Positions 5,219 to 22,766 of a DNA stretch of 64,000 bases are shown here, piece after piece. The stretch is from Candidatus Shapirobacteria bacterium (GTDB taxonomy: Bacteria; Patescibacteriota; Microgenomatia; UBA12405). Every line of letters starts with the position of its first letter. Within the stretch, counting starts at the first letter, position 1. The DNA is taken from assembly GCA_028704885.1 (NCBI GenBank), contig JAQWEN010000001.1, positions 427,999 through 491,998 of the forward strand, in the 5' to 3' direction. The position numbers and the translations under genes are program-made. The notes beneath the pieces were generated by a model. It searched no databases, was not told the DNA's origin, and worked only from the letters and a program-made list of their open reading frames with translations.

Positions 5219-5262
5219 AAACCCACTCCTAAATCCCCTCCCTTGAGGAAATGAGGGGACTT
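5219..5262. other. GC-rich structured intergenic element E2 (AAACCCACTC ... CCCCTC / GAGGGG 6-bp stem ... ACTT), related to E1
   Basis: Stem 5235-5240 pairs with 5253-5258. It lies between yvcK and the TMTC-like gene and shares its 5' decamer and stem chemistry with 3075-3141. Confidence 0.35.
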
Positions 5263-7018
5263 GGTAAAATCAAATATGTCACAGAAAAAACTTAAGAAAT
5301 TAAGAAAATTGGAAGCTGTAAATTTAGTAAAAGAAGTAATTTTGGAGCCGGTTGCGGGTTTTAGGCAAATTATTAAAGAAAATTGGAAATTTTTATTAGC
5401 CTTGATAGTTGGTGTTTTTATATTGTACTTAAATAGTTTGCATGGAGACTTTGTTTCTGATGATTATGCTTCGATAACTCAATATGCTGATATTAAAAAT
5501 CTTTCTGTTGTATTGAAAAAGCCAAATTTACCAGGATTTACTAATAGTGTTTTGGCAATAATATTTGGAATTACTAGCTCTTTTCCTTATCACTTAACTA
5601 ATTTAATTTTATATTTATTGATTTTAATAGTGGCTTTTGTTTTTGTTTTTTTAATAACAAGAAACAAAATAACATCAATGTTAACTTTGGTTTTATATGC
5701 GGTTTTACCTGTTCATGCAGAAACAATTTCATGGATTTCTGGAAGACCTTATCTATTTGTTGCTTTGTTTGTTCTTTTGTCCTTGGATTTGTTAATTTTG
5801 TTTTTAAATAAAAAACAACCTAAATATTTATGGCTAATGTTACCGACTCTAATTCTATTATTTTTGACAGATAGAATTAGAGGGTTTGCAATTGTAATTT
5901 TGTCAGTTTTATATTTCTTGACGTATAAAAATGAACTTGGTTATAAATTTAAAATAGGTAAAATTTTAATTGCAGCAATAGTGGTGACGGTAACCCTAGC
6001 GATTATTTCCTGGCCAATGATTCAGGCCAGAATTGGAGATGTTAATAGTGGTTATAACGGTTCTGAAAGTGTTTTTTATAATCCATTTTTCCAATATCCA
6101 ACTTCAATAGCTAAATATTTGCAAATAATGCTTTTTCCGGTTGATATGACTTTGTATCATACGATGTATATTTTGCCGGTTTGGTTAAATTGGATGATAC
6201 TTTTGACATTTTTAGCTTCGATTGGATATTTTTTCTTTAAAGATAAAAAAATGTTTTTTGCTTTAGCATTTATATTTTTAGCAGCGGCACCATCAATGGC
6301 GCCAGTAAAAGTTAGTTGGCTGGTAGCGGAAAGATATGTATTACTTGGAAGTTTAGGTCTTTGTTTATTTTTAATATTATTTTTTCAAAGATTTGATAAA
6401 AAATGGAAAATTCCATTTTTGATTTTATTTGTAATTTTTACTGGACTATATTCTGCAAGAGTTTATCTAAGAAACATAGATTGGAAAACAAATCACAACT
6501 TGTGGGTTAGTACTTGTCAGTATTCACCAAATAGTCATAATGCTTGGAATAATATTGGGGATGATTACGATAAATTGGCTCAATTAGAAACAACTCCTGA
6601 AGGACAAATGAATCAATATTTGAATTCAATTAAAGGTTTTACTAGATCGACAATTGTTAAAACTAATTATGCTGATGCTTTTCATAATAGAGCTAACATT
6701 TTTTACAAAATAGGAAGATATGATTTGGCTAGAGATAGTTATGAAACTGCTCTTTATTATGGACCAAATCTTTATCAAAGTTATTTTAGTCTTTTACAAA
6801 TCGATTTGAGTGAAAAAAGATATGATTTGGCGATGGATCATTTAAATAAATTACATAAGGCTAAACCAAATGATATTCAGGTTTATTATGTGACGGCAGT
6901 AGTATATGCGAATGCTGGAATGAAAGATGAAGCTAAAAAATTATTGACACAAATATTACAAGCCTACCCTGAATTTCAACAAGCAAAAGATTTGTTAGAT
7001 CAGTTAAATAAAATGTGA
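5261..7018 (+). CDS. TMTC-like GT-C membrane glycosyltransferase (DD-motif N-terminal membrane domain plus C-terminal TPR repeats)
   Basis: GDFVSDDYASITQYADIKN follows TM1 and matches the TMTC/DUF1736 DF..DD motif. About 10 TM helices are followed by TPR-like repeats (YYKIGRYDLARDSYETALYYGPN..., AVVYANAGMKDEAKKLL). The track start is TTG 5261, and ATG 5276 (MSQKKLKK) is more plausible. Confidence 0.6.
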   Translation: MVKSNMSQKKLKKLRKLEAVNLVKEVILEPVAGFRQIIKENWKFLLALIVGVFILYLNSLHGDFVSDDYASITQYADIKNLSVVLKKPNLPGFTNSVLAIIFGITSSFPYHLTNLILYLLILIVAFVFVFLITRNKITSMLTLVLYAVLPVHAETISWISGRPYLFVALFVLLSLDLLILFLNKKQPKYLWLMLPTLILLFLTDRIRGFAIVILSVLYFLTYKNELGYKFKIGKILIAAIVVTVTLAIISWPMIQARIGDVNSGYNGSESVFYNPFFQYPTSIAKYLQIMLFPVDMTLYHTMYILPVWLNWMILLTFLASIGYFFFKDKKMFFALAFIFLAAAPSMAPVKVSWLVAERYVLLGSLGLCLFLILFFQRFDKKWKIPFLILFVIFTGLYSARVYLRNIDWKTNHNLWVSTCQYSPNSHNAWNNIGDDYDKLAQLETTPEGQMNQYLNSIKGFTRSTIVKTNYADAFHNRANIFYKIGRYDLARDSYETALYYGPNLYQSYFSLLQIDLSEKRYDLAMDHLNKLHKAKPNDIQVYYVTAVVYANAGMKDEAKKLLTQILQAYPEFQQAKDLLDQLNKM

Positions 7019-8178
7019 AGATCTTATTTATAGAGCCGTGTTATTTTAATTTTGGGGGTTATTTTAGAGCAATTAATATCTGTACGGCACTTTCAAAAAA
7101 AGGATTTTCTATTGATCTTTTGTTGCCTTCGGATAAAAAATTTTTTTGGAAAATCAGAAAAACAAAAATTAATGAAAATTTGACAATGTATGAATTGCCA
7201 AGATTTTATATAAATTTTTTTGTTCAAGGGCGAATTTTAAGAGGATTTATTGCTACTTTGTTTGGAATTTTTAAAAAATATGATATTGTCCATGCAGCCA
7301 TGCCAGTGGAATTTGAATCGAATATTCCAGCTTTAATATTGAAAATTTTTGGTAAAAAGATTGTGATGGATTGGGACGATAGATTTGAAGACGGGGTTTT
7401 TAGTGGAAATAAAATTTTACATATGTATTTGCGTCTTTGTGAACATGGAATGCCTAAAATAATTAAAAATTATTGTGTGGCTAATGATGTTTTGGGTGAT
7501 TTAGCTAAAGAATATGGAGCTAATAATATAATTAGTATTATTAATGGAGTTAACCTTGATCAGGTTAAAGTTTTGGATAAAAAACAATCGAGAAAGAAAT
7601 TGGAATTAGACAATGAAACTAAATATCTGTTGACTTTTGGGAATACTTTTTCTGAAGAAAGAATTTTTTTATTATTTAAAACTTTGAATTATATTTTTAG
7701 TTTAGATAAAAACACAAAAATAATTTGTACTCTTAATCCTAATAAAATATTGGAAAATAAAAAAATAAAAAAGTTTTTTAATTCAAAATATCTAGATAGA
7801 TTTATAAATGTGAATTATATTCAACCAAATGATTTAGGATTATACTTATCGGCTTGTGATGCTAGTGTTTTTATTGCTGGCGATGATCCGAAAGAAAAAG
7901 TTTGTTTTCCAATAAGAATTGGAACTTATTTATGCGGTGAAACAATAATTGTAATGAATGATGTCAATTCTGAAGTGAATAAAATTTTAGATAAATATAA
8001 ATGCATGGTAATAGATAAAGATTTGGAAAAATTAGCAGCTAAAACAGTAAAAATGCTTTATTCCCCTACGATTCAAAGTGATTTAAAAAAGAAGGTAAAA
8101 TTGGCAAAAAAAGAATTATCTTATGATAATTTAGTGGCAGATTTAATTGGTTACTATCAAAAAATATTAAATGATTAA
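7015..8178 (+). CDS. GT-B fold glycosyltransferase (divergent GT4-like)
   Basis: N-terminus MKILFIEPCYFNFGGYFRAINICTALSKKGF is Rossmann-like, and a C-terminal FPIRIGTYLCGETIIVMND nucleotide-sugar-binding-like segment is present. A GTG start overlaps the previous stop. The call is weak. Confidence 0.4.
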   Translation: MKILFIEPCYFNFGGYFRAINICTALSKKGFSIDLLLPSDKKFFWKIRKTKINENLTMYELPRFYINFFVQGRILRGFIATLFGIFKKYDIVHAAMPVEFESNIPALILKIFGKKIVMDWDDRFEDGVFSGNKILHMYLRLCEHGMPKIIKNYCVANDVLGDLAKEYGANNIISIINGVNLDQVKVLDKKQSRKKLELDNETKYLLTFGNTFSEERIFLLFKTLNYIFSLDKNTKIICTLNPNKILENKKIKKFFNSKYLDRFINVNYIQPNDLGLYLSACDASVFIAGDDPKEKVCFPIRIGTYLCGETIIVMNDVNSEVNKILDKYKCMVIDKDLEKLAAKTVKMLYSPTIQSDLKKKVKLAKKELSYDNLVADLIGYYQKILND

Positions 8179-8956
8179 AGAAACAACAGTTAGTGAATTA
8201 AAAAAGATCTGGAATAAATATAATGACTATTCTGAATTAGATGGATTATTAAAAAATCTTAGAGAGAATGATGGAAAGGAAATTAAAGATTGGTTACATT
8301 TGCCGATTCATTTGCCGTTTATTAAAAAAGAATTAAAAGGTTTAAGTAAAAATGCCAAAGTATTAGAGGCTGGCTGTGGTTTTGGTCATTGGGTTTTTTG
8401 GATGGCAGAGCAAGGTTATCAAGCTGTGGGTGTTGACTTGGCTCCTAAGGCCATTATTACGGCTAAAAATTATGCTAAAAAAAATAATCTTAAAAATTGT
8501 GAATTTATTGAGGGCGATATTCGTAAATTACCAATAAAAGATAATTATTTTGATATTATTTTTAGTTTTGGAGTTATTGAGCATTTTCATAATCCAGAAA
8601 TTATTTTAGATGAATTAAAAAGGGTGTTGAAACCAGGTGGAAAGATATTTTTTAGTGTACCTAATCAATATTCTTTCCATACATTAACGAGAATAATTTT
8701 AAAAGGAATCGGTAAATGGCATTTAGGTTATGAACGCTCATATAGTTCTAAATCATTAAATATATTATTTAGGAAATGCGGATTTGAAGTTTTAAGAGGC
8801 GGAATAATGCCTGGAGGTGAATTGTTTGGAAGAGGGATGAATAATATTCCCTTGATTGGTGATTTTCTGTTTAAATTATTTTCGAAAATAAGTTTTTATA
8901 TAGAAAATCATCAAAAAATTTTTGGTTTTTGGCTTTATGGAGTGGCAAAAAAATAA
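8171..8956 (+). CDS. Class I SAM-dependent methyltransferase (Methyltransf_11/23-like)
   Basis: VLEAGCGFGHWVFWMAEQGYQAVGVDLAP (motif I), FDIIFSFGVIEHF and LKPGGKIFFSVPN. Confidence 0.75.
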   Translation: MIKETTVSELKKIWNKYNDYSELDGLLKNLRENDGKEIKDWLHLPIHLPFIKKELKGLSKNAKVLEAGCGFGHWVFWMAEQGYQAVGVDLAPKAIITAKNYAKKNNLKNCEFIEGDIRKLPIKDNYFDIIFSFGVIEHFHNPEIILDELKRVLKPGGKIFFSVPNQYSFHTLTRIILKGIGKWHLGYERSYSSKSLNILFRKCGFEVLRGGIMPGGELFGRGMNNIPLIGDFLFKLFSKISFYIENHQKIFGFWLYGVAKK

Positions 8957-9780
8957 AAAAAATGAAAAATATAAAAACGAGAAAACAAAAATGGCTCGAT
9001 GCCCAAAAGGGAGAATTAAAGTCTTGGACTATCGGGGATTTAGATTGTAAGGGTTTAATTAACTCATGGAAAAATAGAATTAATAATTATAAAATTGATT
9101 TTTCTGATTTTAAAGTTTCTACAAAAATTTTAGATGTTGGTTGTGGTCCGGTATCAATATTGGAAATATTGCCTAAATCAAAAACAATGATAGCTACAGA
9201 TTCTTTGAATGATAAATATCAAAAATATTTTTTTAGAAAAAATACTAATATTGAATATAAAAATTTTGCTGCCGAGAATATTCCTTATAAAAATAATTAT
9301 TTTGATGTTATTTTCTGCCTTAATGCATTTGATCATTTAGAAAAGCCATTTGTGGCTTTAAGCGAAATGTTAAGAGTATTAAAGACAAGTGGTCGTATTT
9401 ATGTTGAATTTGAAAATACTTCTCCTATGGTTAAATTTTTAAGTAGATTTGGTTATAAAAAACCATTAAGTCAGTTTCATCCACATTTACTTAGTTTAGA
9501 TAATATTGAAAAATATATTAAAAAGAACCATCAAAATGTCAATATAGAAATAATAGATTTAAAGCCAGAATTTAATTTTAATAAAATTATTTATCTTATA
9601 GAAATAATTTTAAGAAAGAAAAAAATGACTAAAAGTGAGACAAATATAAGTGCAATAAGTGCTGGTCCTTTAAGATTTTTTTTCCATTATATAATAATCG
9701 TAATCGAAAGGTTATTTTTTATTTTTAATCCTAAAAAGTATTCGTATTTTAATATTATAGTATTAAAAAAAATAAAATAA
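8929..9780 (+). CDS. Class I SAM-dependent methyltransferase
   Basis: ILDVGCGPVSILEILP, FDVIFCLNAFDHLEKP and LKTSGRIYVE. The C-terminal ~80 aa of this ORF may be read-through and not part of the protein. Confidence 0.7.
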   Translation: MALWSGKKIKKMKNIKTRKQKWLDAQKGELKSWTIGDLDCKGLINSWKNRINNYKIDFSDFKVSTKILDVGCGPVSILEILPKSKTMIATDSLNDKYQKYFFRKNTNIEYKNFAAENIPYKNNYFDVIFCLNAFDHLEKPFVALSEMLRVLKTSGRIYVEFENTSPMVKFLSRFGYKKPLSQFHPHLLSLDNIEKYIKKNHQNVNIEIIDLKPEFNFNKIIYLIEIILRKKKMTKSETNISAISAGPLRFFFHYIIIVIERLFFIFNPKKYSYFNIIVLKKIK

Positions 9781-11283
9781 TTATTTTTTCTTTTGGTTAT
9801 TCTTTCCTTTCCCAAAGAATAGGATTTTTAAAGCTGGGCTTTTCTTTTCTTTTAATACTTTATAGATATAGATAGGATTGAGTAAAACGTATTTGAAATA
9901 AAATTTAAAGTTTAACCATGTAATTAATAATTTTATTTTTAAAATCATTGATAAATATTTTTGATCGTGACGTTTTTCCGGATTAAGAAATACCCTGTCT
10001 TCTAAAAAATAAAATCTATCTTTTTTCCAAAACTCAAAACAAGCTTTAAGTGGAATTTCTGTAAATAAATTATCAACATTCATATTTTTTGATACCAAGC
10101 CCTTTTCTAGTGCATAGTCCCAAATTTTAGTGCCGGGATAAGCAATTAAGATGTAAATGTTGGGATTTTCGATGGGGTGTTTTTTTAGTAATTGATAGGT
10201 GGCTTGCAAATCTTCAATTGTTTCTCCTGGTATAGTGACAATAAAACCACTGGAAACTCCAATTCCATATTTATGACATAAATCTATAGCTTTTATATTT
10301 TGTTCAACTGAAACAGAATTAGCTTTTAAATAATTGAGCATTTTGGAACTAAAACTTTCAAAACCAAAAGATATTCTTTTTACGTTCATACTCTTTAGAG
10401 CCTTAACAACATCTTCGTCGATTAAATCGGCCTTACCAAATCCAGAAAATACAATTTTTTTGTGCCATCCTCTTTTTTTAATTTCATTAGCTAGATGAAT
10501 TAATCTTGCTTTTGGAGCGGTAAAAAAATCGTCAAAAAAATATAGGCCATCGATGTCGTAATTTTTGATTAGATAATCAATTTCTTTAATAATATATTCA
10601 ACAGAATGAAACCTAACAGAACCCCATTGAACATTGGATGCACAATGGAGACAATGGTAAGGACAACCTCTTGATGTCATCATGCCAGTAAGTCTTTTCA
10701 TTCCGTATAAATTGAGTTGACGGCTTAAATATTTTTTTTCCATAGGAACGAATTCTCTTGAAGGTATTGGTAATTGATCAATGTTTTGAATTAGTTTTCT
10801 GGGTTTAGTTTTAATTAACTTATTTTTTTCAAAATATACTAAACCGTCTATTTTAGAATTTTTAATATTATTTTTTTTATCATTTTTATATGCTTCAATT
10901 ATTTCACCAAGTGTTATTTCTCCTTCACCTATAACACCAACATCAAAAACTTTATCAAAAGAATCAGGACAGCCAGTGATATGGGTGCCACCTATTATAA
11001 TTTTAGTTTTAATAGATTGTTTAACTTTTTTTGCTATTGATTTAGTGAAATCGTAGTTAACGGAATCGACAGTAAAACCAACAATATTAGGGTGATATTT
11101 AATTATTTTTTTTAATGGTTTACTATCTTCAATGATTTTTATGTCTACGAAAGGATATTTTTCTTTTATACAACTTCCTAAACACATAAGACCGAAATGG
11201 GGAATATTGTTCCAAACTTTTTCGCAATTAACTAATAATAGCTTTATTTTCTTTTCTTTACGGTTCATGAAATATGATAGCAT
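9781..11283 (-). CDS. B12-binding-domain radical SAM enzyme (class B; putative sugar C-methyltransferase or modifier)
   Basis: The N-terminal Rossmann-like B12-binding region (KIKLLLVNCEKVW...IVGFTV...IIIGGTHIT) is followed by MMTSRGCPYHCLHCAS, the CxxxCxxC cluster. Confidence 0.8.
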   Translation of the reverse strand: MLSYFMNRKEKKIKLLLVNCEKVWNNIPHFGLMCLGSCIKEKYPFVDIKIIEDSKPLKKIIKYHPNIVGFTVDSVNYDFTKSIAKKVKQSIKTKIIIGGTHITGCPDSFDKVFDVGVIGEGEITLGEIIEAYKNDKKNNIKNSKIDGLVYFEKNKLIKTKPRKLIQNIDQLPIPSREFVPMEKKYLSRQLNLYGMKRLTGMMTSRGCPYHCLHCASNVQWGSVRFHSVEYIIKEIDYLIKNYDIDGLYFFDDFFTAPKARLIHLANEIKKRGWHKKIVFSGFGKADLIDEDVVKALKSMNVKRISFGFESFSSKMLNYLKANSVSVEQNIKAIDLCHKYGIGVSSGFIVTIPGETIEDLQATYQLLKKHPIENPNIYILIAYPGTKIWDYALEKGLVSKNMNVDNLFTEIPLKACFEFWKKDRFYFLEDRVFLNPEKRHDQKYLSMILKIKLLITWLNFKFYFKYVLLNPIYIYKVLKEKKSPALKILFFGKGKNNQKKK

Positions 11284-11325
11284 TATTTCTTGTTTAATAA
11301 GGTATTTTTTAAAAAATGTTAAAAG

Positions 11326-12888
11326 TTATTTTAATATCTTATATTTATAAGCGGCTTTAAGACGATGAGTTTTTAGCTCTCCAAATTTAATAGTAGAAAC
11401 AACCATTGATAAATAATTTCTGATTATTTTGACAAGATAACTAAAATCTTCCCAATTATGAATTTTTTTGATAATAGTTGCCGGTTTGATAATGGGACGG
11501 AAAAAACGAGAAAGCATCAATTTTCTTTGGGCTTTATTACGGAGATTTCGAATGTCATTTACAGAAAGATATTTATTTCCCAAACCGGCATAACCAGAAA
11601 ATGTTTTACCAATTTTGGTATTGCTAATGTCAGCTTTTTTTAATAGACCTTCATCTTCTAAAATTTTAGTAACATCTGTTTCGGGAAAAGGCATTAATAA
11701 GATAAAAACAACAAAATCAGAAAGAGATTTAATGGCGTAATTAAAGGTGGTTTCAATAGCTTTTTTGGTTTCATAAGGAAAACCAATTATGTAAGTAGAA
11801 AAAGTCCAAATACCAAGACTATTCGTAAGTTTAATTATTTTTTTGGCTTTTTGTAAATTTAAATTTTTTCTAATAAATTTTTGAGTGACAGGATGACCAG
11901 ATTCAATACCAAAAGTTAATCGATAACAACCACTCTTTTTCATTTTTTTAAGAAGAGATCTATTTAAAGTCCAAATAGCTATGCCATTAGGACAAGTCCA
12001 TTTAATATCTAATTTTTTGGCAATAATTCCGTCGCAGATTTTTTCTAGTCGATCGCGACTGACAGAAATATTATCGTCGAGAAAATGAATTTCCTTAATA
12101 CCATATCTTTTAACTAAAAATTCGATTTCATTAACGATACGCTCAGCACTAAAAGGTCGCCAACTTCGACCCCAAATTCCAGGAACAGCACAGTAAATAC
12201 AATTTCCAGGACAGCCACGGCTGGTAACAACGGTGGTGGCTGGAGAACGCATGTCATAAGTATTTTTACTTTCTGCATAAACCCTAAGATAAACGTCCAT
12301 AGGAAATAAATGTCGAGCTGGAAGCGGTAGAGAATCTAATTTAGCAATCGGAAGACGACGTGGATTCAAAATAATTTCGCCTTGATCATTTCTTATGGCA
12401 GTACCATTTATATTTTGAAGACTTTCCTTATTTTCGAATTTTTTAACTATTTCAAGAATAGTATATTCACCTTCACCAATAACCACGATGTCAACATTAG
12501 GATCATGAAGAACATTTTTATAAAGAATTGAAGCATGAGCACCACCAAAAACAACTAATGTTTTGGGATTGAATTGTTTGACTATTTTGGCAACATCATG
12601 AGAATCGCTGGAATAGGCTGTGAACATAGTGCTGATACCAACAATATCCGGTTTGAAGTATTCTAATCTTTCAAGAATTGTTTTTTCTGATAAACCAACC
12701 CTGGTATAATTTTTGGTTTTTTTGACAATATCGATGCCTTCAGCCAGAGCATCGATAGCAGAAACATTATAACCATTGGTTTCTAAAATGGCACCAATGT
12801 TAGCTAAACCTAGTGGTATGGCGGCACCGGGAGTAGTGGTGTCATTACTTCTAATAGTCATTGGTGGGTAAATAAGGAGGATTTTCAT
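11326..12888 (-). CDS. B12-binding-domain radical SAM enzyme (class B)
   Basis: MKILLIYPP...IVGISTMFT...LVVFGGAHAS is followed by VVTSRGCPGNCIYCAV. Confidence 0.8.
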   Translation of the reverse strand: MKILLIYPPMTIRSNDTTTPGAAIPLGLANIGAILETNGYNVSAIDALAEGIDIVKKTKNYTRVGLSEKTILERLEYFKPDIVGISTMFTAYSSDSHDVAKIVKQFNPKTLVVFGGAHASILYKNVLHDPNVDIVVIGEGEYTILEIVKKFENKESLQNINGTAIRNDQGEIILNPRRLPIAKLDSLPLPARHLFPMDVYLRVYAESKNTYDMRSPATTVVTSRGCPGNCIYCAVPGIWGRSWRPFSAERIVNEIEFLVKRYGIKEIHFLDDNISVSRDRLEKICDGIIAKKLDIKWTCPNGIAIWTLNRSLLKKMKKSGCYRLTFGIESGHPVTQKFIRKNLNLQKAKKIIKLTNSLGIWTFSTYIIGFPYETKKAIETTFNYAIKSLSDFVVFILLMPFPETDVTKILEDEGLLKKADISNTKIGKTFSGYAGLGNKYLSVNDIRNLRNKAQRKLMLSRFFRPIIKPATIIKKIHNWEDFSYLVKIIRNYLSMVVSTIKFGELKTHRLKAAYKYKILK

Positions 12889-12893
12889 ATTAT

Positions 12894-14354
12894 TTATTTT
12901 TTAGATGGAGAAATTAGAAAAACAAAAAGTTTATTAAATAATTTATTATCATAAACTAATTTTCTAGAAAGGTGTCCTAAAATTGGTACACGGGTTAATA
13001 AATAAAAAATAATTCCTAATATTTTGCCGAAACGGAATTGATAAAGCTTTCTTTCGTATAAATTAAAACCTTTTTTCATGATACTAATTCGCTGGTTTTT
13101 GGTAAATTCTTTAGTTTCAAAAATAGGATTAATGTCGCGATAAGATATTTCCTTTAGATATTGATTTTTGGGAATTAAAAAATGAGCGTGTTTAATTGCC
13201 CAGTAATAAACTTCGGTACCAGGATAAGGAACAAGATTATAGAAATTAACATAATTACAATTTAACTTTTTAGCGAAATTAAGAGTTTCTATGGCATCTT
13301 GATAGGTTTCATCTTGGTGGCCAATAATAAAATTAACGGCGTGTTTAATTTTAGCTTGATTAGTAAATTTTACAGCTTGGATAACTTGGTCTAAAGTAAT
13401 ATTTTTTTTGATTCGGTCAAGAATTTTTTGACTGCCTGATTCACAACCATAAGCAATAAAAAAACAACCAGTTTTTTTTAATTTTTTGAGAAGTTTTAGG
13501 GTTATATTATTAACTCTAATGCCGTTGTAAAGTTGAAACTTGAGGTGAAGTTTATTTTTAATGATTAAATCACAAATGGCTTCGGCTCGATTAATATCAA
13601 GAGTAAAACAATCATCATTAAAATCGAAATTGGTAAAACCTTTCTTGTACCAATAAGTAATTTCATCAATAACATTTTGAGGACTACGTGGTCGAAAACT
13701 TTGACCCATAGAGAGGCGGACAGAACAATAATTACAACCATGAGGACAACCACGAGAAGTAATAATAGGAATAATTTTTTCCCGAAAACAAGGGTAGGCC
13801 GACAAATTAAAACTTTCGTAATCTGGGAAAGGTAATTGATCTAGATGTTGAATTAGAGGCGCTGGTGAGTTAATAATTATTTTGTTTTTGTTTTTCCAAA
13901 TGAGATTTGGTACTTTAGAGAAATCTGGTTTTTTTTGAAAAAAAACTTTTAAAAAATCAATAATAGAAGTTTCTGACTCACCGTACATAGCAAAAGTAAC
14001 CTTGGTTTCTTTTAATATTTTATCTTTGGTAGCAGAAACGTGAGGACCACCAAGGATAATGGGGGTAGCAGTAATGGATTTGATTTTTTTAATTGCTTGA
14101 TAAATATATTTATAAGCATAACTAAACCCAGTGACACCAATGATGTCGGGAGAAAAAACTTTTATAATAGTTTTTAATTTAGTTGGCCAATCTTTTTCAA
14201 TTCCACAATCAATAATTTGATATTGATAATTATTGGCTTTGAGGATAGAGACAAGATAGGCAATACCAACATGAGGATGGATAGGAGTCCCCTTTTCGGT
14301 ACCGAACATAGATTTAACTTCCGGAATAACAAATAGTATTTTTTTGGATATCAT
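12894..14354 (-). CDS. B12-binding-domain radical SAM enzyme (class B)
   Basis: ILFVIPEV...IIGVTGFSY...IILGGPHVS is followed by IITSRGCPHGCNYCSV. Confidence 0.8.
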   Translation of the reverse strand: MISKKILFVIPEVKSMFGTEKGTPIHPHVGIAYLVSILKANNYQYQIIDCGIEKDWPTKLKTIIKVFSPDIIGVTGFSYAYKYIYQAIKKIKSITATPIILGGPHVSATKDKILKETKVTFAMYGESETSIIDFLKVFFQKKPDFSKVPNLIWKNKNKIIINSPAPLIQHLDQLPFPDYESFNLSAYPCFREKIIPIITSRGCPHGCNYCSVRLSMGQSFRPRSPQNVIDEITYWYKKGFTNFDFNDDCFTLDINRAEAICDLIIKNKLHLKFQLYNGIRVNNITLKLLKKLKKTGCFFIAYGCESGSQKILDRIKKNITLDQVIQAVKFTNQAKIKHAVNFIIGHQDETYQDAIETLNFAKKLNCNYVNFYNLVPYPGTEVYYWAIKHAHFLIPKNQYLKEISYRDINPIFETKEFTKNQRISIMKKGFNLYERKLYQFRFGKILGIIFYLLTRVPILGHLSRKLVYDNKLFNKLFVFLISPSKK

Positions 14355-15385
14355 TAGACTTTAAGTAAAATTGATTTATTAATTTTGTTTATAATGCTTT
14401 CTTTTTTGTAAATATAGGTAAAAAGTTTTTTGTCGGTTAAAACTCTATTTTTTTGAATTGTTCGTCTTTTTAATAAAGTTTTCTTAATATTTTTTATATT
14501 CCAGATTATACCTAAAATAATATAAAAAGACCCTTTTACTTTAAATTTAATAAATAACAAATAAATAGAATATAGAATAAAAATAGATATTTGTTTTGGT
14601 AAAATTATTATTAATTTGGGTAATGATAAATTTTTTAATATAGTTAAAATATAATTTTTAGTTCCGTGAAAATAGAGGTTATAGTTGGCAAAATTGAAAT
14701 TTAATAATTTAAAACTGCCGGAAAAACCATGATATACAATGGAATTTGGACAATAAACTGTTTTGAAACCTTTTAACCAAGAACGCCAGCATAGATCAGT
14801 CTCTTCCATATAAATGAAATAATCATTGTCAAAACCACTAATTAATTTAAAAACATCTTTTCTAATGAACATGCCAGCTGATTTAGCGGCAAATACAACA
14901 GCTTTTTTATCATATTGACCAACATCAATATCTTTATAGGTGGCTCGGTGGCTTAATAGACCGAATTGATTTAGATAATCACCAGTATAGTCAAATTTAT
15001 TTTTTTCATTTAATAAAAGTAATTTTGATTGGATACAACCTATTTTTTTGTCCTTATCAAATTCAGATTTAGCAGCTTTTAACCAATTTATATCAACTTC
15101 TGTGTCATTATCAAGAAAACTAATTATTTTACCTTTGGCTATTTTAACGCCACGATTTCTAGCAAAAGCTGGACCAAAGTTTTTTTTAAGATCTAAAATT
15201 TTTATTTTGGATAAATTAGACTTAAATTCAAATTTTATTTTTTCTATTGTACCGTCGGTTGAACCATTGTCAGCGATTATTATTTCATAATTTTTATATG
15301 AATTTTTTAGAATAGAGTTAAGACAATTCTTTAAAAGAGAATAACCATTATAGTTAACTATGATAATAGAGACTAATGAATTCAT
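14354..15385 (-). CDS. Glycosyltransferase family 2
   Basis: SIIIVNYNGYSLLKNCLNSIL...YEIIIADNGSTDGT and a DxD in FLDNDTEV. The C-terminus has TM helices. Confidence 0.8.
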   Translation of the reverse strand: MNSLVSIIIVNYNGYSLLKNCLNSILKNSYKNYEIIIADNGSTDGTIEKIKFEFKSNLSKIKILDLKKNFGPAFARNRGVKIAKGKIISFLDNDTEVDINWLKAAKSEFDKDKKIGCIQSKLLLLNEKNKFDYTGDYLNQFGLLSHRATYKDIDVGQYDKKAVVFAAKSAGMFIRKDVFKLISGFDNDYFIYMEETDLCWRSWLKGFKTVYCPNSIVYHGFSGSFKLLNFNFANYNLYFHGTKNYILTILKNLSLPKLIIILPKQISIFILYSIYLLFIKFKVKGSFYIILGIIWNIKNIKKTLLKRRTIQKNRVLTDKKLFTYIYKKESIINKINKSILLKV

Positions 15386-15388
15386 TTT

Positions 15389-16357
15389 TTAAATTTTTTG
15401 TTGACCAGAATAAAAACCCTTACACGAAAAATATAAACTAATAAATAACAAATAAATATTAATTAATGGTAATAATATGACTATTGGTTTTTTGATGCAA
15501 TAAATTAGAGTATTTTTAGTATAAAGAAATGAATAAATTATAATTAAAATTAAAAAAAACAATCTTATATATGGAAACAATAAGCCAATGAGTAGAATTT
15601 CTCGAAAAAAGGTACGAATAAAATGTTTTATATTTAAAATGCCATATTTTTTTAGTAAAGCTCCTTGAGCTTCGGAGTATTGGGCTTGTTTATAAATGAT
15701 TTTTTTGTAATTAAAAGTATCTTCTTGATTATGAATATGAAGTATAGTTGCTTTAGTAGAAACTACTTGGCCGATTTTGTTAAGTTTTAAAAAAATATCC
15801 CCATCTTCACCAGCTCGAAAAAAAATTTTATTATCGAAAAGACCAATTTTAATTAATTCTTTTCGTCGATAACAATCAAATTTACCGTCCATAGCCGATT
15901 GAAGTTTTTTTAATTGCCTGTCGAAAAAAACTTTTTGCCAAAAATTATATTTTTTCCAGATTTTAAATGGATGAATTACTTGATGGTAGCTGGCGATAAT
16001 TTTTTTTTGAGAAAAAGGGGCGACTAAAAGAGATATAGCATTCTTTTGAAGAATTACATCTGAGTGCAAGGTAATGACCAAATCCCCTTTTGAATTTAAA
16101 ATTCCATCATTGTATGAAGCAGATAAACCGATAGATTTGGAATGGTTAATTATATTTTTTTTAATTTTAGTAAAATGTTTTTTAAAATAGGTTTTTATTA
16201 TGGATAAAGATTTATCAGTAGAACCATCATTGATGATGATTATTTCATAAATTAGTTTTTGTTGAGTTGATAGACTCTTTAGAGTATTAAGAATAGTTGA
16301 TTGAGCGTTGTAGACAGGAATTATTATTGAAATCTTGTTCATGTTAATTTTGCCCAA
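15389..16357 (-). CDS. Glycosyltransferase family 2 with a C-terminal membrane anchor
   Basis: ISIIIPVYNAQSTILNTLKSL...YEIIIINDGSTDKS and a hydrophobic C-terminus. Confidence 0.75.
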   Translation of the reverse strand: MGKINMNKISIIIPVYNAQSTILNTLKSLSTQQKLIYEIIIINDGSTDKSLSIIKTYFKKHFTKIKKNIINHSKSIGLSASYNDGILNSKGDLVITLHSDVILQKNAISLLVAPFSQKKIIASYHQVIHPFKIWKKYNFWQKVFFDRQLKKLQSAMDGKFDCYRRKELIKIGLFDNKIFFRAGEDGDIFLKLNKIGQVVSTKATILHIHNQEDTFNYKKIIYKQAQYSEAQGALLKKYGILNIKHFIRTFFREILLIGLLFPYIRLFFLILIIIYSFLYTKNTLIYCIKKPIVILLPLINIYLLFISLYFSCKGFYSGQQKI

Positions 16358-17376
16358 CTAGGTGGTAAATTTTCTTCTATTTCAATATTTTTGAATTTTT
16401 TTGGTTTAATAGGACCGATTTTTTGAGCATAAGCAATCATGCTTTTTAAACCTACCTCCATTTTGGTTTCATTCTTTATATTGAATATTTTTTTTGCCTT
16501 TAAATGATTGGAGAAAGCTTGATAAACTTCGATCCTGGGTGGAAAATGAATTATTTCTGTTTTTTTGGAAAAGTATTGACTGATAATTTCAGCAATTTCG
16601 TTAATAGTATATGGTTTTTCGGAACCAATATTAATTATTTGATTAGTAGCCTGATCATTGGTGGCTGATTGAGCGATGTAGGGAGCGACGTCTTTGACGT
16701 AAGTAAAAGCGCGAGTTTGATTGCCGTCACCAAAAATTGTTAATGGTTTATGCAACATAATATTATTTATAAAAATACCGAGAACATTTCGATAGGGATC
16801 ACCGTGATTTTGTCTTTCACCATAAACATTGTGGGGTCTGAAAATTACATAATTTAAACCAAACATTTTATGAGCAGCTTCTAAATCAAGTTCAATTGCA
16901 TATTTAGCGATACCATAAGGATCTTCTGGTTGAGGAGTTAAACTTTCAACCATTGGAGTTTGATTGGTGCCATATACAGCAATACTTGAAGTAAAAATAA
17001 ATTTTTTAATTTGATGTTTAATTGATGCATTAATTAAATTTATAGAACCGATTAAATTATTTTCATAATTAAAACGACGAATAAAAGGACTTAAACCTTC
17101 AGCTGCATAAGCTGCTAAATGAAAAACATAGTCGAAATTGTATTTATTAAATAAAGAATCGACTAATTTTTGATTAGTAACCGAACCTTTGATAAAGATG
17201 GCTTTAGAATTAATATTTCGAAGAAAACCACCACTTAAATTATCTAAAACAACAACTTTGTAGCCCAAATTTATAAGTTCATCAACTAAATGAGAGCCGA
17301 TAAATCCGGCACCACCAGTAACTAAACAAATTATTTTTTTATTTATATTTGACTGGGTCTTATTGTCAGTATTCAT
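16339..17376 (-). CDS. NAD-dependent sugar-nucleotide epimerase/dehydratase (extended SDR, UDP-hexose 4-epimerase-like)
   Basis: The Rossmann motif ICLVTGGAGFIGSHLVDEL and the catalytic YGIAKYAIE (YxxxK). Confidence 0.8.
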   Translation of the reverse strand: MNTDNKTQSNINKKIICLVTGGAGFIGSHLVDELINLGYKVVVLDNLSGGFLRNINSKAIFIKGSVTNQKLVDSLFNKYNFDYVFHLAAYAAEGLSPFIRRFNYENNLIGSINLINASIKHQIKKFIFTSSIAVYGTNQTPMVESLTPQPEDPYGIAKYAIELDLEAAHKMFGLNYVIFRPHNVYGERQNHGDPYRNVLGIFINNIMLHKPLTIFGDGNQTRAFTYVKDVAPYIAQSATNDQATNQIINIGSEKPYTINEIAEIISQYFSKKTEIIHFPPRIEVYQAFSNHLKAKKIFNIKNETKMEVGLKSMIAYAQKIGPIKPKKFKNIEIEENLPPSWAKLT

Positions 17377-17383
17377 AAACTAA

Positions 17384-18496
17384 TCAAAAAATTGGATTAA
17401 GAGAACAACATCTAAAACAAGCAGGTATTATTTTATTTTTTTGGATGTATTTTTGAAATCTAATAGTTTTTTTGTTATGCCAAATATCTAAAAGCGAATT
17501 TTCTTTTATATTTCCCAAAATATAACCATGACACATCTCAATATCACCATTACCTCGGAGAAAAACTTGATTAAAGGGTGATGTACAAATAGATTCTTTT
17601 TTGGGAATGGCGCCAGTATAAAAATTTTTGATATCCATACTATTTGGCATAGTAATTTTTACTTTTGATTTATTGCTGTTTATTAAGGCTTGAGTTTCTT
17701 TTAATTTTTGAGAAATAGTTAATCTTTCTTTGGCATTAAAAAGAACTTTTTTAGTGCCGTTGTATTCGCCCCAAACATCATTTCCAAACTTAGTTTTTTG
17801 ACTGAATTTTAATTGTTGTTTTCTTATTTTGTCGTAAAAATAAAAATGATGACTAATTGACCATTCATCAACACCTAAATCTTTAATAACTTCGTAAATT
17901 TTGTCAAAATTAGCGATATTTGATTTAGAGATAACAGTGGCAATACGAATATTGGGAAAAGTGTTCTTACCCCTTAATTCAATTATTTTTTTAATGCCTT
18001 TAATTATTTGAGGGAATGAATCTTTAACTAATCCTCTCTGGTATTGAGTTGCTTCATCTGGACCATCAAGAGAAATGGCTAAAAAATCGAGTCCAGAATT
18101 AATTAAATCAGCAGCCATCTTTTCAAGCAACATACCATTGGTCACAAGGCCTTTGACTATTCTTTTTTGATCTAAATATTTTATTATGTCAATAATTTCT
18201 GGGTGCATTAAGGGTTCTCCACCGGCTAATGAAACTGAGGGAGAATAAGGAGCAATATTATCAAAAAACTTTTTTAAATCAGGTAAAGAAAGTTCGTTCA
18301 TATTTTTAAGACGAGAAGTTACAACATGGCACATGGGACAATTAAAATTACAACGTTCCGTAATAAAACAATTTATCGTTCGAGGAAAAGGAGTGGCTTT
18401 ATTTTCATATAAATATTTATCAAAGACAGTATTTTTGGCAGTTGATGGATATTTAATTGCTAATTTAATTTTTTTTTGAAGGTTTAGCTGAGCCAT
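17384..18496 (-). CDS. Radical SAM enzyme with a SPASM/twitch C-terminal domain
   Basis: ITERCNFNCPMCHV (CxxxCxxC) and the C-terminal cysteine cluster CTSPFN...GDIEMCHGY...IIPACFRCCS. Confidence 0.8.
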   Translation of the reverse strand: MAQLNLQKKIKLAIKYPSTAKNTVFDKYLYENKATPFPRTINCFITERCNFNCPMCHVVTSRLKNMNELSLPDLKKFFDNIAPYSPSVSLAGGEPLMHPEIIDIIKYLDQKRIVKGLVTNGMLLEKMAADLINSGLDFLAISLDGPDEATQYQRGLVKDSFPQIIKGIKKIIELRGKNTFPNIRIATVISKSNIANFDKIYEVIKDLGVDEWSISHHFYFYDKIRKQQLKFSQKTKFGNDVWGEYNGTKKVLFNAKERLTISQKLKETQALINSNKSKVKITMPNSMDIKNFYTGAIPKKESICTSPFNQVFLRGNGDIEMCHGYILGNIKENSLLDIWHNKKTIRFQKYIQKNKIIPACFRCCSLNPIF

Positions 18497-18497
18497 A

Positions 18498-19619
18498 TTA
18501 ATAATGTCTGACGATTAATTTTATATTATTGATATTGAAATATTTTTTGGTGTAACTAGGACAATTGTTTTTCATTTGATTAAGTAAAATTCTATCATTT
18601 TTTAGCTTTAAAATTGCAGATTTAAAGTTTTCAACAGTAGGTTTTACTAAAATTGAGACAGATTCATCAACTATTTCGGGAATAGTACCAATATCTGAGG
18701 CAATAACCGGAAGACCAGAAGCGACGGCCTCCATAATGGTTCTAGTGAAACCTTCTTGATATAAGGCTGGCTGAATAAAAACATCGGCGGTTGAATAATA
18801 ATCAATTAATTTGTGGTTATCAATTTTTCCTAGGAAATTAATATTAGATAATTTTTGTTGAGAAATATATTTTGATTCCGGACCAGATCCAATAATTACA
18901 AATTCAATGTTGGGTAGTTTTTTGGCAAGTTTGATAATAATTCTAGTCCCCTTTTTAATAATAAGACGGGAAACAAAAAGAACTTTGAATTTTGAAGGAG
19001 AAATATTTGATTTTTTATTATTGAATTTTTTTGGATCAACCCAATAACGATATAAGGATATTTTTTTACTATTTACTCCCCAATTTATTAATTGATTTTT
19101 TGAGTGAACAGATTGGGCCAAAACCATATCGGTTCGGTTTAAGACAAAACTAGTCAGTTTGGCAGTGAGAGAAGTGGATGAATTATCATAAAGAGCGTGG
19201 GTGCTAGTGACATGTTTTTTGTGGAAGAAAAAAGCTAAAATATTTCCAGCAACAGCTCCATTAAACCCATGAGAATTAATGGTGGTAATTTTTTGATGAT
19301 TGAAAAGCATCCAAAAAAAGGTACGAAGACATAAATAAGGAGTTAAATATAGAAAATCTATAAATGGATATTTTTCAACTTTATGAAAAAGATTTTTGCC
19401 AAACCATCGATATCTGTAAATATTAATATTATTGATTTTTTCTCTTGATTTCCATTCAACATTAGCGGTAGTTAAAGGGGAATAAGTGTGAACATAAACT
19501 GGATAACCCAGGTTATCTAAACCATTAACTAAATCAGTAAGATGAGTTTCAACACCGCCAATATTTGGAGAAAAAAATGGAGTAAGAATTAAAATGCCTT
19601 TTTTAGAATTTATTTTCAT
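18498..19619 (-). CDS. Glycosyltransferase family 4 (GT-B)
   Basis: ILILTPFFSPNIGGVETH and EGFTRTIMEAVASGLPVIASDIGTIPEIV (the E-x7-E motif). Confidence 0.75.
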   Translation of the reverse strand: MKINSKKGILILTPFFSPNIGGVETHLTDLVNGLDNLGYPVYVHTYSPLTTANVEWKSREKINNINIYRYRWFGKNLFHKVEKYPFIDFLYLTPYLCLRTFFWMLFNHQKITTINSHGFNGAVAGNILAFFFHKKHVTSTHALYDNSSTSLTAKLTSFVLNRTDMVLAQSVHSKNQLINWGVNSKKISLYRYWVDPKKFNNKKSNISPSKFKVLFVSRLIIKKGTRIIIKLAKKLPNIEFVIIGSGPESKYISQQKLSNINFLGKIDNHKLIDYYSTADVFIQPALYQEGFTRTIMEAVASGLPVIASDIGTIPEIVDESVSILVKPTVENFKSAILKLKNDRILLNQMKNNCPSYTKKYFNINNIKLIVRHY

Positions 19620-21765: not shown

Positions 21766-22766
21766 TTATTTCTATTAACAGCTTTTATTAAAGCTAATTT
21801 GTATTTTAAATAGATGGTTGAGTATACAATTAGTGTTATATAACAAGCAATTGGATGAAAAAACCAGGCTGAATCTGGTTTATGAAAATATCCCCTAATA
21901 GAATCTATTACTGCCGGAATGATTAATATTGTATAAAATACAAATTTTATAATTCCGTTTTTATTACTTTGATTCCAGTTAAATTGACGAAACTTTTGAT
22001 AGTAAAAATAATCAGTAATGCGACGGTTTTGTTTGCGAATAAATTTTTTGATCGATGATTCACAAAAAGTGTGAATAATCCCCTGTTTAACTTTGGCAAA
22101 ATAAATTGATTTTTTAGTTTTAGATAAATAATTAGTAATAATATCGATATCAAAAAGATAGTCAGAGTTTATGTTGTTTTTTAAAAAATCATTTCTAAAA
22201 ATAGTGCCGTTGGCACCAATAGTAGGAATAAGTGAATTTGATTTTAATTCAATTTTTATATATTTATTTTTATCAATTTGATCTATTTTTAGCCCAGTCC
22301 ATTTGTAATTGATATAATTTTTTCGATCATAAACTCCAGAAACAAAGGCAAATGGATCATTGACTCCGATTAAGGCAGAATACCTTTCAATAAAACCAGC
22401 CTTTGATCGGTAAGTAAAAAATAGTGGTTCGGTGCCAATTAAAGAAGAATCATTTTCTAAAATATCAATATTAGTTTGAAGCCAATTTTTGGTGGGTAAA
22501 ATATTATCAGAATCAATTAAAGCAATGTATTTCCCAATAGCGTTTTTGACACCAATAGCCTTGCCGGCTTCGGCAGTTTTGAGTAAATTTTTAACAATTT
22601 TGACATGATATTTTTTAGCGATTTTAAGAGTGTTATCGGTCGATCCTCCATCGGCGATAATAATTTCGTATTCTTTTTTAGGAAAAGATTGTTTTTTAAT
22701 CGATTTAAGACAGTTTTCTAGAACCGAGTTAGCATTAAGAGTAGGAATAATAAAACTAATTATCAT
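21753..22766 (-). CDS. Glycosyltransferase family 2
   Basis: [22 protein letters not shown]...[14 protein letters not shown] and [10 protein letters not shown]. Confidence 0.75.

Follow-up and report, generated by a model that had tools for sequence, protein, structure and literature searches.

The locus belongs to a tiny-genome groundwater bacterium, Candidatus Shapirobacteria (Patescibacteria/CPR). Within the window (the whole stretch of DNA analysed, 64,000 nt), 19 genes form a co-directional array of ~23 kb on the minus strand, in which glycosyltransferases (GTs) and sugar dehydratase/epimerase-type SDRs are interspersed with four radical SAM genes, designated R1 to R4. Gaps within the 23 kb are all ≤42 nt. 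A preliminary description had placed three consecutive class B-type radical SAM ORFs here and a fourth at 22756-24261; the boundaries match exactly and all four lie on the minus strand. Its tally of four, however, missed a fifth radical SAM gene, S5, of the SPASM type, bringing the count to five: four class B-type or class B-like enzymes and one SPASM enzyme. The genes referred to below are as follows.

45-1013: Methyltransf_24, flanking envelope gene (Pfam/NCBIfam)
952-1782: Wzt-like ABC ATPase, flanking envelope gene (Pfam/NCBIfam)
1772-2134: 23S-rRNA-IVS protein, flanking gene (Pfam/NCBIfam)
2235-3035: Wzm-like ABC-2 permease, flanking envelope gene (Pfam/NCBIfam)
3142-4215: acyltransferase_3, flanking envelope gene (Pfam/NCBIfam)
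4237-5214: CofD/YvcK-like, flanking gene (Pfam/NCBIfam)
5261-7018, plus strand: polytopic membrane protein with C-terminal TPR repeats (TPR Pfam matches; ~8-10 hydrophobic segments)
7015-8178, plus strand: GT4-like 387-aa protein (PF13439, weak), convergent with R1
8171-8956, plus strand: class-I SAM methyltransferase (PF08241, 97.7 bits), convergent with R1
8929-9780, plus strand: class-I SAM methyltransferase (PF08241, 54.8 bits), convergent with R1
9781-11283, minus strand: R1, class B-type radical SAM, 500 aa (NCBI: 495 aa), last gene of the array
11326-12888, minus strand: R2, class B-type radical SAM, 520 aa, with the strongest B12-binding domain among R1-R4
12894-14354, minus strand: R3, class B-type radical SAM, 486 aa, directly following GT2_a
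14354-15385, minus strand: GT2_a (PF00535, 104 bits), C-terminal hydrophobic segments, directly upstream of R3
15389-16357, minus strand: GT2_b (PF00535, 96.7 bits), C-terminal hydrophobic segments, upstream of GT2_a
16339-17376, minus strand: SDR_a, NAD-dependent epimerase/dehydratase (PF01370, 195 bits)
17384-18496, minus strand: S5, radical SAM plus SPASM, without a B12 domain (PF04055, 78.8 bits; PF13186, 41.9 bits)
18498-19619, minus strand: GT4_a, glycosyltransferase (PF00534, 110.5 bits)
19622-20692, minus strand: SDR_b, 4,6-dehydratase/epimerase-like SDR (PF01370, 127.7 bits)
20695-21765, minus strand: SDR_c, 4,6-dehydratase/epimerase-like SDR (PF01370, 136.2 bits)
21753-22766, minus strand: GT2_c (PF00535, 76.5 bits), one C-terminal hydrophobic segment, immediately downstream of R4 with an 11-nt overlap
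22756-24261, minus strand: R4, class B-like radical SAM; 501 aa when translated from the first ATG, 489 aa in the NCBI annotation (start near 24225); conserved core
24185-25165, minus strand: GT2_d, core gene upstream of R4 (Pfam GT match)
25168-25971, minus strand: GT2_e, core gene upstream of R4 (Pfam GT match)
25961-27100, minus strand: GT4_b, core gene upstream of R4 (Pfam GT match)
27081-27908, minus strand: GT2_f, core gene upstream of R4 (Pfam GT match)
27905-32794, minus strand: three GT-C (PMT-like) membrane glycosyltransferases, head of the array, core (PF02366/PF13231 matches)

GT2, GT4, NAD-dependent epimerase/dehydratase and class-I methyltransferase genes and GT-C/PMT-like membrane proteins neighbour R1-R4, with Wzm/Wzt-type ABC export genes and a Wzx-type flippase also nearby, bearing out the original view of the region as a glycan locus. 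SDR_a scores under the cutoffs of the GalE, LegB and heptose-epimerase models, SDR_b and SDR_c reach 132 and 119 bits with the dTDP-glucose 4,6-dehydratase model (cutoff 365), and the GT2 partners of R1-R4 match no specific family. S5 reaches no NCBIfam family cutoff; its best PDB match is a sugar-acting enzyme, the cytosylglucuronate decarboxylase BlsE (1.2e-12).

All four class B candidates match the PF04055 Radical_SAM domain, with E values from 3e-14 to 1.5e-26 (93.9, 81.4 and 73.4 bits for R1, R2 and R3, respectively). The companion assignment to PF02310, the B12-binding domain, holds for three of them: against a Pfam gathering score of 32.1 bits, R1 scores 39.3 (a partial match, residues 54-128), R2 75.6 and R3 49.3, but R4 only 21.2. 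The preliminary description had made its interpretation depend on a B12-type fold in the N-terminal domains; R1-R3 exceed the PF02310 threshold, and R4, which falls below it, is modelled with the two-domain class B fold. NCBIfam alignments of R1-R3 to BchE, Sden_1168, PhpK and HpnR extend through the N-terminal domain, and an alignment of the R4 and R2 families spans 455 columns, this domain included (hhalign probability 100, E 1.7e-74). The canonical CxxxCxxC cluster motif is present in R1-R3 (C207xxxC211xxC214, C226xxxC230xxC233 and C203xxxC207xxC210, respectively). R4 has a variant, C230-x4-C235-x2-C238, kept in 11/11 members of its clade examined. Inteins in relatives sit exactly at the cluster-motif cysteines.

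The four proteins had been called paralogs. They share the class B layout, identity among them is just 24-30%, they represent anciently diverged subfamilies and none reaches a curated cutoff. The NCBIfam class B families scored were BchE, HpnJ, HpnR, the Sden_1168 and PhpK P-methylases, KedN5, MgmA, TsrM, the RiPP C-methylases, BzaD, the ladderane-type lipid family and ApyD. The highest score is that of R2 with Sden_1168 (222 bits; cutoff 575); the others amount to about half of the respective cutoff or less. R1-R4 fall far under the cutoffs of the methylase models KedN5, PhpK, HpnR and TsrM, with 29-41 bits for TsrM (cutoff 500). R1-R4 are new members of an already known kind of enzyme. "Cobalamin-dependent" is here the name of a class, not a property visible in the DNA, and for R4 the B12 assignment is weak.

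The AF2 model of R2 (pLDDT 90.7) retrieves MgmA (1e-24) and AprD4 (1.5e-24) in Foldseek, followed by OxsB, TsrM, TokK and CysS; the matches to MgmA, OxsB, TsrM, TokK and CysS are full-length. The best PDB sequence match of R3 is MgmA/QCMT (9ccb; 6.7e-23, residues 93-382), and a class-I methyltransferase is fused to the C-terminus of R3 relatives P0450, P0466, P0506 and P0509. The R4 model is closest to AprD4, and the best full-length NCBIfam match of R4 is HpnJ (residues 59-493 on model positions 32-467 of 472).

The locus was compared with five related Patescibacteria loci carrying R4 (L003 and L087-L090) and, for R2, with L007. In Microgenomates-type Patescibacteria the core order is three to four GT-C genes, GT2, GT4, GT2, GT2, R4, GT2, with the GT2-R4-GT2 segment lying inside the conserved core of all five loci. 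GT2_c orthologs (354-510 bits) adjoin R4 in L003 and L087-L090. The order GT2_d/GT2_e/GT4_b/GT2_f is kept in L087-L090 at ortholog-level scores (389-563 bits), preceded by three to four orthologous GT-C genes. R1-R3 and S5, on the other hand, make up a strain-variable cassette between this core and the TPR membrane protein with the Wzm/Wzt export genes. Cassette content ranges from zero to three extra class B enzymes and from zero to three SPASM enzymes. The cassette of L088 contains an R1 ortholog (464 bits), absent from L003 and L089; S5 has orthologs in L003 and L087 (545 and 485 bits, respectively). In L003, R3 immediately follows GT2_a; in L087 the two are close, with a SPASM gene between them; in L007 a GT2_a-like gene lies beside the R2 homolog. 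An ortholog of the GT4-like protein (7015-8178) follows R2 in L003. The TPR membrane protein marks the far edge of the cassette in L003, L087, L088 and L089, and L089 carries the same CofD-AcylT3-ABC2-ABC block. The R2 family as a whole is large (2271 proteins at E≤1e-10), with relatives in CPR, DPANN, Bathyarchaeia, methanogens and Omnitrophota in a genome scan. It is not limited to glycans, since a GT neighbour is detectable in only 21/57 loci of at least 12 kb and Bathyarchaeia carry clusters of 3-6 R2-family paralogs without GTs.

These data show directly how the domains are arranged, which motifs the proteins carry, and their homology, operon structure and synteny; from these we infer substrate, cofactor use and reaction type. 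The explanation that we favour, with somewhat better than even confidence in it as a whole, is that R1-R4 are intact enzymes of four different, anciently diverged, uncharacterised radical SAM subfamilies which, together with S5, serve as tailoring enzymes of a cell-envelope glycan pathway. Most likely, they edit sugars of a cell-surface polymer. The radical SAM genes usually adjoin a GT2 gene whose product has C-terminal hydrophobic segments, suggesting that each enzyme probably edits the sugar of its partner GT. The enzymes might meet this sugar as a nucleotide-sugar, as a polyprenyl-phosphate-sugar or within the growing chain. Reductive cleavage of SAM would yield a 5'-deoxyadenosyl radical, which would strip a carbon of the sugar of one H atom. 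In the case of R2 and R3, transfer of a methyl group from methylcobalamin to the sugar (C-methylation) would be the most likely outcome, in view of their strong B12-domain matches and of the MgmA-like character and methyltransferase-fused relatives of R3. For R4, a cobalamin-independent, redox-neutral step (dehydration/deoxygenation or rearrangement) seems more likely, given its sub-threshold B12 match, its Cx4Cx2C motif and a model closest to AprD4. The proposal that the four enzymes carry out C-methylation or carbon-skeleton editing of sugars thus survives in part: sugar tailoring is likely, and R2 and R3 are probably cobalamin-dependent methylases, but R4 probably is not. This split is drawn from similarity ranks, which are warned against as non-predictive of class B chemistry; methylating and non-methylating members are indistinguishable by sequence, the latter have no separating structural features, and AprD4 and ArsL have similar domains yet no cobalamin (PMC12931638). 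No sequence motif reports cobalamin binding, because the cofactor is held base-off and its cobalt has no protein ligand. Neither a cobalamin riboswitch nor a B12 transport gene was found in the window or in the related loci.

If all of R1-R4 were cobalamin-dependent C-methyltransferases, they would place several methyl branches on the sugars of the glycan and the cell would need imported B12. The above-threshold B12 domains of R1-R3, the abundance of methyltransferases in the locus, the radical SAM-methyltransferase fusions and the sugar precedents GenK and GenD1 are consistent with this. It seems unlikely nonetheless, as no methylase family cutoff is reached, R4 is under the B12-domain threshold and closest to the cobalamin-free AprD4, and R2 is as close to AprD4 as to MgmA; a class-I methyltransferase is also, though not decisively, an odd fused or adjacent partner for a methylase. 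Conversely, most or all of R1-R4 might edit sugars without methyl transfer. They might take an AprD4-like route, in which a 1,2-diol is dehydrated by radical chemistry and an SDR then reduces the product to a deoxysugar, or an HpnJ-like one, in which a sugar installed by a GT2 undergoes radical ring contraction or rearrangement. Among solved relatives, AprD4 ranks first or joint first for R1, R2 and R4; two of the three SDRs in the array come just after R4-GT2_c, recalling the pairing of AprD4 with its NADPH-reductase AprD3; HpnJ, the best NCBIfam match of R4, is also a strong and the second-best one of R2; and the GT2-radical SAM adjacency resembles HpnI-HpnJ. However, the AprD4 match covers the barrel and not the N-terminal domain, the AprD4 cutoff is far off, its Cx3Cx3C spacing occurs in none of R1-R4, the SDRs are missing from the R4 loci L003, L087, L088 and L089, and the window contains no hopanoid genes, making this reading quite unlikely as a general account.

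Substrates other than sugars fit the locus less well. CPR bacteria are generally held unable to make their own lipids, and R1-R4 might instead methylate or cross-link a polyprenyl carrier or scavenged membrane lipids, as do HpnP/HpnR, ladderane-type lipid radical SAM enzymes and archaeal lipid methylases. R1-R4 score 80-141 bits with the model of the lipid family TIGR04072, and the match to the hopanoid methylase HpnR is weak; the R2 and R3 families abound in archaea with unusual lipids, and many of the Bathyarchaeia clusters have no GT neighbours. Yet all lipid-family scores are far under cutoff, lipid biosynthesis genes are absent nearby and the CPR loci interleave radical SAM genes one-for-one with GTs and SDRs in a single operon, so that action on lipids appears improbable. 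Modification of a protein or peptide, in the manner of MgmA, PoyC or ApyD, is highly improbable; the target could be a glycosylated pilin or S-layer protein, or the precursor of a RiPP. Here one may cite the similarity of R3 to the protein methylase MgmA, the RiPP families ApyD and TIGR03975 among the sub-threshold matches, and GT-C/PMT-like genes suited to protein glycosylation; but all family scores are far under cutoff, genes for peptidases, leader-binding proteins or RiPP transport are missing, and the gaps of at most 42 nt in the array leave no room for a precursor peptide gene.

The favoured reading, of R1-R4 and S5 as glycan-tailoring enzymes, lends itself to a broader picture that we put forward tentatively and consider doubtful in its full form. 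Microgenomates-type CPR might share a conserved envelope glycan with, in its core, a sugar edited by radical chemistry to a deoxy, branched or carbocyclic form. R4, AprD4-like and of the Cx4Cx2C type, would make this sugar, acting between two GT2s with C-terminal hydrophobic segments and possibly on a sugar linked to polyprenyl phosphate. Strains might diversify this glycan through swappable modules of GT2 plus class B or SPASM radical SAM enzyme, with or without a methyltransferase. If true, the cassette would parallel O-antigen serotype variation by way of radical chemistry and would be shared with DPANN archaea through gene transfer.

Among characterised systems, AprD4 (PDB 6fd2), which acts with the reductase AprD3 as the radical SAM 1,2-diol dehydratase of apramycin synthesis, does not bind cobalamin (PMC12931638). 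Its identity to R1-R4 is only 14-20%, sequence similarity does not extend beyond the barrel, and its model (NF033070, cutoff 500) gives 59, 92, 72 and ~33-34 bits with R1, R2, R3 and R4. Its motif, GCPYPCRFYC, aligns as Cx3Cx3C, as against Cx3Cx2C in R1-R3 and Cx4Cx2C in R4, and its context is antibiotic secondary metabolism rather than an envelope glycan locus. Fold similarity is high, nevertheless, so R4 may work in an AprD4-like manner without belonging to the family. MgmA/QCMT, the methyl-coenzyme M reductase glutamine C-methyltransferase and top Foldseek match of R2, is a compact cobalamin-dependent class B methylase (450-residue chain) with the canonical motif. It acts on a protein, methyl-coenzyme M reductase being absent from this organism and locus, and its model (TIGR04014, cutoff 360) gives 52-108 bits. 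In hopanoid cyclitol-ether synthesis, the class B enzyme HpnJ, encoded next to the GT2 HpnI, is thought to rearrange the sugar that HpnI installs, an adjacency like that at the R1-R4 locus. Hopanoid synthesis is not known from CPR bacteria, and scores with the HpnJ model are 114-180 bits (cutoff 577.6). HpnJ is listed as non-methylating (PMC12931638). GenK and GenD1 have the class B architecture and use cobalamin to methylate unactivated sugar carbons of gentamicin (PMC5461906). Their substrates are small-molecule aminoglycosides, whereas R1-R4 are set among genes for a GT2/GT-C-built, ABC-exported polymer. C-methylation of the GenK/GenD1 type, the chemistry put forward in the preliminary description, would be the likeliest for R2 and R3.

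Four class B-type radical SAM genes (R1 to R4) are found on the minus strand in the ORF listing, exactly where the preliminary description had placed them. A fifth radical SAM gene (S5), which that description overlooked, lies between R1-R3 and R4.

9781-11283, minus strand: R1, 500 aa
11326-12888, minus strand: R2, 520 aa
12894-14354, minus strand: R3, 486 aa
17384-18496, minus strand: S5, 370 aa, radical SAM plus SPASM domain, in the same operon as R1-R4
22756-24261, minus strand: R4, 501 aa

In the Pfam scan, all four of R1-R4 matched PF04055 (Radical_SAM). The B12-binding domain, PF02310, scored above its gathering score of 32.1 bits in R1 (39.3), R2 (75.6) and R3 (49.3) but below it in R4 (21.2). 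The proposed pairing of the two domains stands for R1-R3, while the B12 assignment of R4 is weak. Similarity to the B12-binding fold is present in the N-terminal domains, as expected from the claim of four cobalamin-dependent enzymes; nonetheless, there is real doubt that R4 binds cobalamin. R1-R3 carry the canonical CxxxCxxC motif, and the corresponding motif of R4 reads C230-x4-C235-x2-C238. None of the four proteins contains a DxHxxG histidine ligand, an expected and uninformative result: in class B enzymes cobalamin is bound base-off, and the protein supplies no ligand to the cobalt (PMC12931638). Pairwise identity among R1-R4 is only 24-30%, and they must therefore be old paralogs rather than recent duplicates. 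Recent duplication of R1-R3 in particular was rejected since the three are 28-30% identical to each other and each is 60-89% identical to its own orthologs. The R4 reading frame, taken from its first ATG, overlaps the glycosyltransferase gene GT2_d by 77 nt, whereas the NCBI call is 489 aa long; in the structural model, pLDDT is below 50 at residues 13-18 and averages 52 and 48 over residues 1-10 and 11-20, respectively. The true start is probably Met13, near 24225. A protein identical to R2 is encoded on contig JAQUEN010000001.1 (GCA_028685145.1, annotated as a Candidatus Shapirobacteria MAG, Patescibacteria/CPR), and public annotation already names the R1-R4 genes B12-binding radical SAM proteins. 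The original observation of four class B genes is correct and well above chance.

With a GC content of 25-33%, the window is AT-rich. A Pfam scan of every ORF of at least 90 aa showed envelope-glycan machinery to make up almost all of it, bearing out the glycan-locus context ascribed to R1-R4. The Pfam matches in the window include:

many GT2 and GT4 glycosyltransferase genes
three NAD-dependent epimerase/dehydratase (SDR) genes
three class-I methyltransferase genes
a Wzx-type flippase and a Wzm/Wzt-type ABC exporter
an acyltransferase_3 and a CofD/YvcK-like protein

Nineteen co-directional genes, separated by gaps of at most 42 nt or overlapping, run from 32794 to 9781. About 14 GT-C-type membrane paralogs, an unusually high number where the genome is small, occupy nearly half of the window (27905-62595, both strands); the set shows PMT, PMT_2, GT87 and Alg6/8-like matches, and several members have no Pfam match. 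A 120-aa "23S rRNA-intervening-sequence protein" gene (1772-2134, minus strand; PF05635, 132 bits; weak bAvd-like match) separates the Wzm permease and Wzt ATPase genes, a pair that is adjoining, with no insert, in loci L003 and L089. Outside the window start, the next 10 kb (L091) still belong to the glycan locus and encode GT2, GT4 and SDR proteins, a DUF7657/DUF7654 protein, a sugar nucleotidyltransferase of 514 aa and a SIS-domain isomerase of 207 aa; this set may hint at a precursor derived from a phosphosugar, of the heptose type or another. For the DUF11 protein at the end of the window, a look-up gave nothing.

Five further Patescibacteria loci, retrieved through contig look-ups for homologs, were compared with the window: ORFs from the six-frame translation of every locus were scored against the window proteins. 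A core comprising three to four GT-C genes, GT2_f, GT4_b, GT2_e, GT2_d, R4 and GT2_c is conserved at ortholog level (350-940 bits). Beyond GT2_c, as far as a TPR membrane gene in divergent orientation and the CofD/acyltransferase/Wzm/Wzt block, strains differ both in their GT2, GT4, methyltransferase and SDR genes and in their radical SAM content.

Radical SAM genes in the variable stretch of the window and five related loci
Locus; extra class B genes; SPASM genes
Window; 3; 1
L003; 2; 1
L087; 2; 3
L088; 2; 1
L090; 1; 0
L089; 0; 0

Since core synteny is kept while the cassette counts vary, R4 is a fixed part of the pathway, and R1-R3 and S5 are strain-variable accessories. S5-type genes number from zero to three per related locus; S5 itself attains no NCBIfam family cutoff, and its best PDB sequence match is the sugar-acting cytosylglucuronate decarboxylase BlsE (1.2e-12). 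Glycosyltransferases of the GT2 family recur beside the class B genes: R4 is flanked by them in every compared locus, GT2_a directly precedes R3 in the window and in L003 and lies near R3 in L087, and the R1 ortholog of L088 is directly preceded by a GT2 gene. At the C-terminus, GT2_a to GT2_d each carry one to three hydrophobic segments. Their assignment as polyprenyl-phosphate sugar synthases (GtrB/ArnC/DPMS type) is a hypothesis, the PDB and NCBIfam matches being generic.

The wider families extend well beyond this lineage. A homolog search with R2 returned 2271 proteins at E<=1e-10, and at least 497 relatives were confirmed among the 600 pattern matches listed from a scan of GTDB species genomes; those listed include Bathyarchaeia, methanogens, Methanoperedens, Omnitrophota, several DPANN phyla and Saccharibacteria. 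Glycosyltransferase, SDR or methyltransferase genes neighbor the R2 homolog in five of the six loci where it scores at least 300 bits. Among 57 loci of at least 12 kb, a glycosyltransferase was detectable in 21, at least two class B paralogs in 29 and at least four in 13; multi-paralog arrays are therefore common in the superfamily, and glycans are not the family's only setting. The R3 family is found in Shapirobacteria, Woesebacteria, Berkelbacteria, Omnitrophota and Halobacteriota. R4 yielded 6364 homologs at E<=1e-10, the best 120 of which are all at least 64% identical to it and all come from sources named Shapirobacteria or "Patescibacteria group bacterium"; the family is compact (261 clusters of 50% identity at E<=1e-30). 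Within Patescibacteria, R4 is highly conserved. Close relatives also occur in DPANN archaea: a Woesearchaeota contig (L079) has an R4 homolog scoring 423 bits next to an R3-like gene, a Nanoarchaeota locus (L014) an R2-like gene adjoining GT2_c/d/e-like genes and a Micrarchaeota locus (L085) an R1-like gene (255 bits). Such close relatives of CPR genes point to gene sharing between two small-genome radiations. An Actinobacteria MAG (GCA_023488455.1) has a stand-alone 194-aa ORF for a B12-binding domain (L005, 11595-12179) immediately downstream of its R2 homolog; their cluster also includes another class B radical SAM gene along with three GT4 and two methyltransferase genes.

Class-I SAM methyltransferase domains are fused to the C-terminus of one R4-type protein (P0144; L087, 10001-12103) and four R3-type proteins (P0450, P0466, P0506 and P0509), the fusions measuring 686-752 aa and connecting the radical step with a conventional methylation on the same substrate. 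Among R4 relatives, the cluster motif has a first loop of x3 to x19 (the latter in P0277). In five of these (P0253, P0257, P0263, P0264 and P0272; about 32-40% identical to R4 in alignment A2) none of the three cluster cysteines is left, and the proteins may be pseudo-enzymes without activity. Five others, of 665-972 aa, harbor inteins exactly at a cluster cysteine: the third in P0241, P0244, P0250 and P0251 (in P0241, CWWGKCTF/CFPPET...VKN/CSWTT, slashes marking the junctions) and the first in P0243 (GRD/CFPAGT...VHN/CWWRR). Insertion at precisely these positions suggests that the first and third cysteines are essential.

No named family could be assigned to R1-R4, none of which attains a curated NCBIfam cutoff; the closest approach is that of R2 to the Sden_1168 P-methylase (222 bits against a cutoff of 575). 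R1-R4 are new, uncharacterised enzymes. The class comprises more than 80,000 sequences, and for most of its groups the function is not known (PMC12931638). The top NCBIfam matches of R1-R4 are mixed: the cyclase BchE, the non-methylating HpnJ, a lipid family, P-methylases and RiPP enzymes. Alignments to the cobalamin enzymes among them include the N-terminal domain, while those to AprD4 cover only the barrel. In PDB sequence, R1 and R2 are nearest to the barrel of AprD4 (6fd2), and R3 and R4 to MgmA/QCMT (9ccb). No structural features separate non-methylating class B enzymes from methylases (PMC12931638).

The readings weighed here start from the observed architecture, motifs, homology, operon structure and core-versus-variable synteny. 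The one we lean towards, at slightly better than even confidence, is that R1-R4 and S5 tailor envelope-glycan sugars, each enzyme coupled to an adjacent glycosyltransferase. A 5'-deoxyadenosyl radical would abstract a hydrogen atom from a sugar carbon, with methylcobalamin-mediated C-methylation the likeliest outcome for R2 and R3, and cobalamin-independent dehydration or rearrangement likelier for R4. That all four are methylases, as proposed earlier, is unlikely: the B12-binding scores of R1-R3 exceed the threshold, but no methylase family cutoff is reached and the score of R4 is too low. The methylation reading is plausible but unproven, one subset of several possibilities and least secure for R4. 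Non-methylating editing throughout is also unlikely: HpnJ is among the matches and AprD4 is the nearest solved relative of R1 and R2, but the AprD4 alignment covers only the barrel. Lipid substrates, in line with the lipid-family match, are improbable for genes embedded among sugar-modifying and glycosyltransferase genes. Protein or peptide substrates are very improbable: RiPP enzymes appear among the matches, but the intergenic gaps of the array leave no room for a precursor-peptide gene, and the RiPP reading was rejected on that ground.

Dependence on external B12, also proposed earlier, is a reasonable if putative proposal for R2 and R3. No cobalamin riboswitch or other Rfam family, and no B12 uptake or salvage gene, was found in the window and six related loci, nor any tRNA in the window; the sole ABC system there is of the ABC-2 polysaccharide-export type. 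Searching the literature for CPR/Patescibacteria in connection with B12-dependent RNR, with B12 radical SAM enzymes or with class B enzymes of glycan loci brought up nothing relevant.

Four class B subfamilies and a SPASM enzyme are linked by conserved synteny to the main locus for the envelope glycan in a lineage that is uncultured and depends on a host, with R4 fixed in the core across Microgenomates-type Patescibacteria. From this we infer, so far, that the GT2-R4-GT2 and GT2-R3-R2 modules would be concrete targets for new sugar chemistry, and that the cassette would bear on the surface variation of CPR cells, that is, on what a host or phage would meet. If R2 and R3 need cobalamin, that variation would hang on a probably imported cofactor, a metabolic link to the community. 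The most useful new points are the core placement of R4, the variable radical SAM cassette, the methyltransferase fusions and the likeness of R4, with its Cx4Cx2C motif, to AprD4. To our knowledge, the known sugar-acting class B radical SAM enzymes all come from antibiotic pathways. AprD4, a radical SAM 1,2-diol dehydratase, acts with the NADPH reductase AprD3 in deoxygenating a sugar of an aminoglycoside (PMC5461906) and binds no cobalamin (PMC12931638). The family profile of R4 matches AprD4 (5e-34) and MgmA (5e-26), and its alignments with TsrM and OxsB start from the N-terminal domain.
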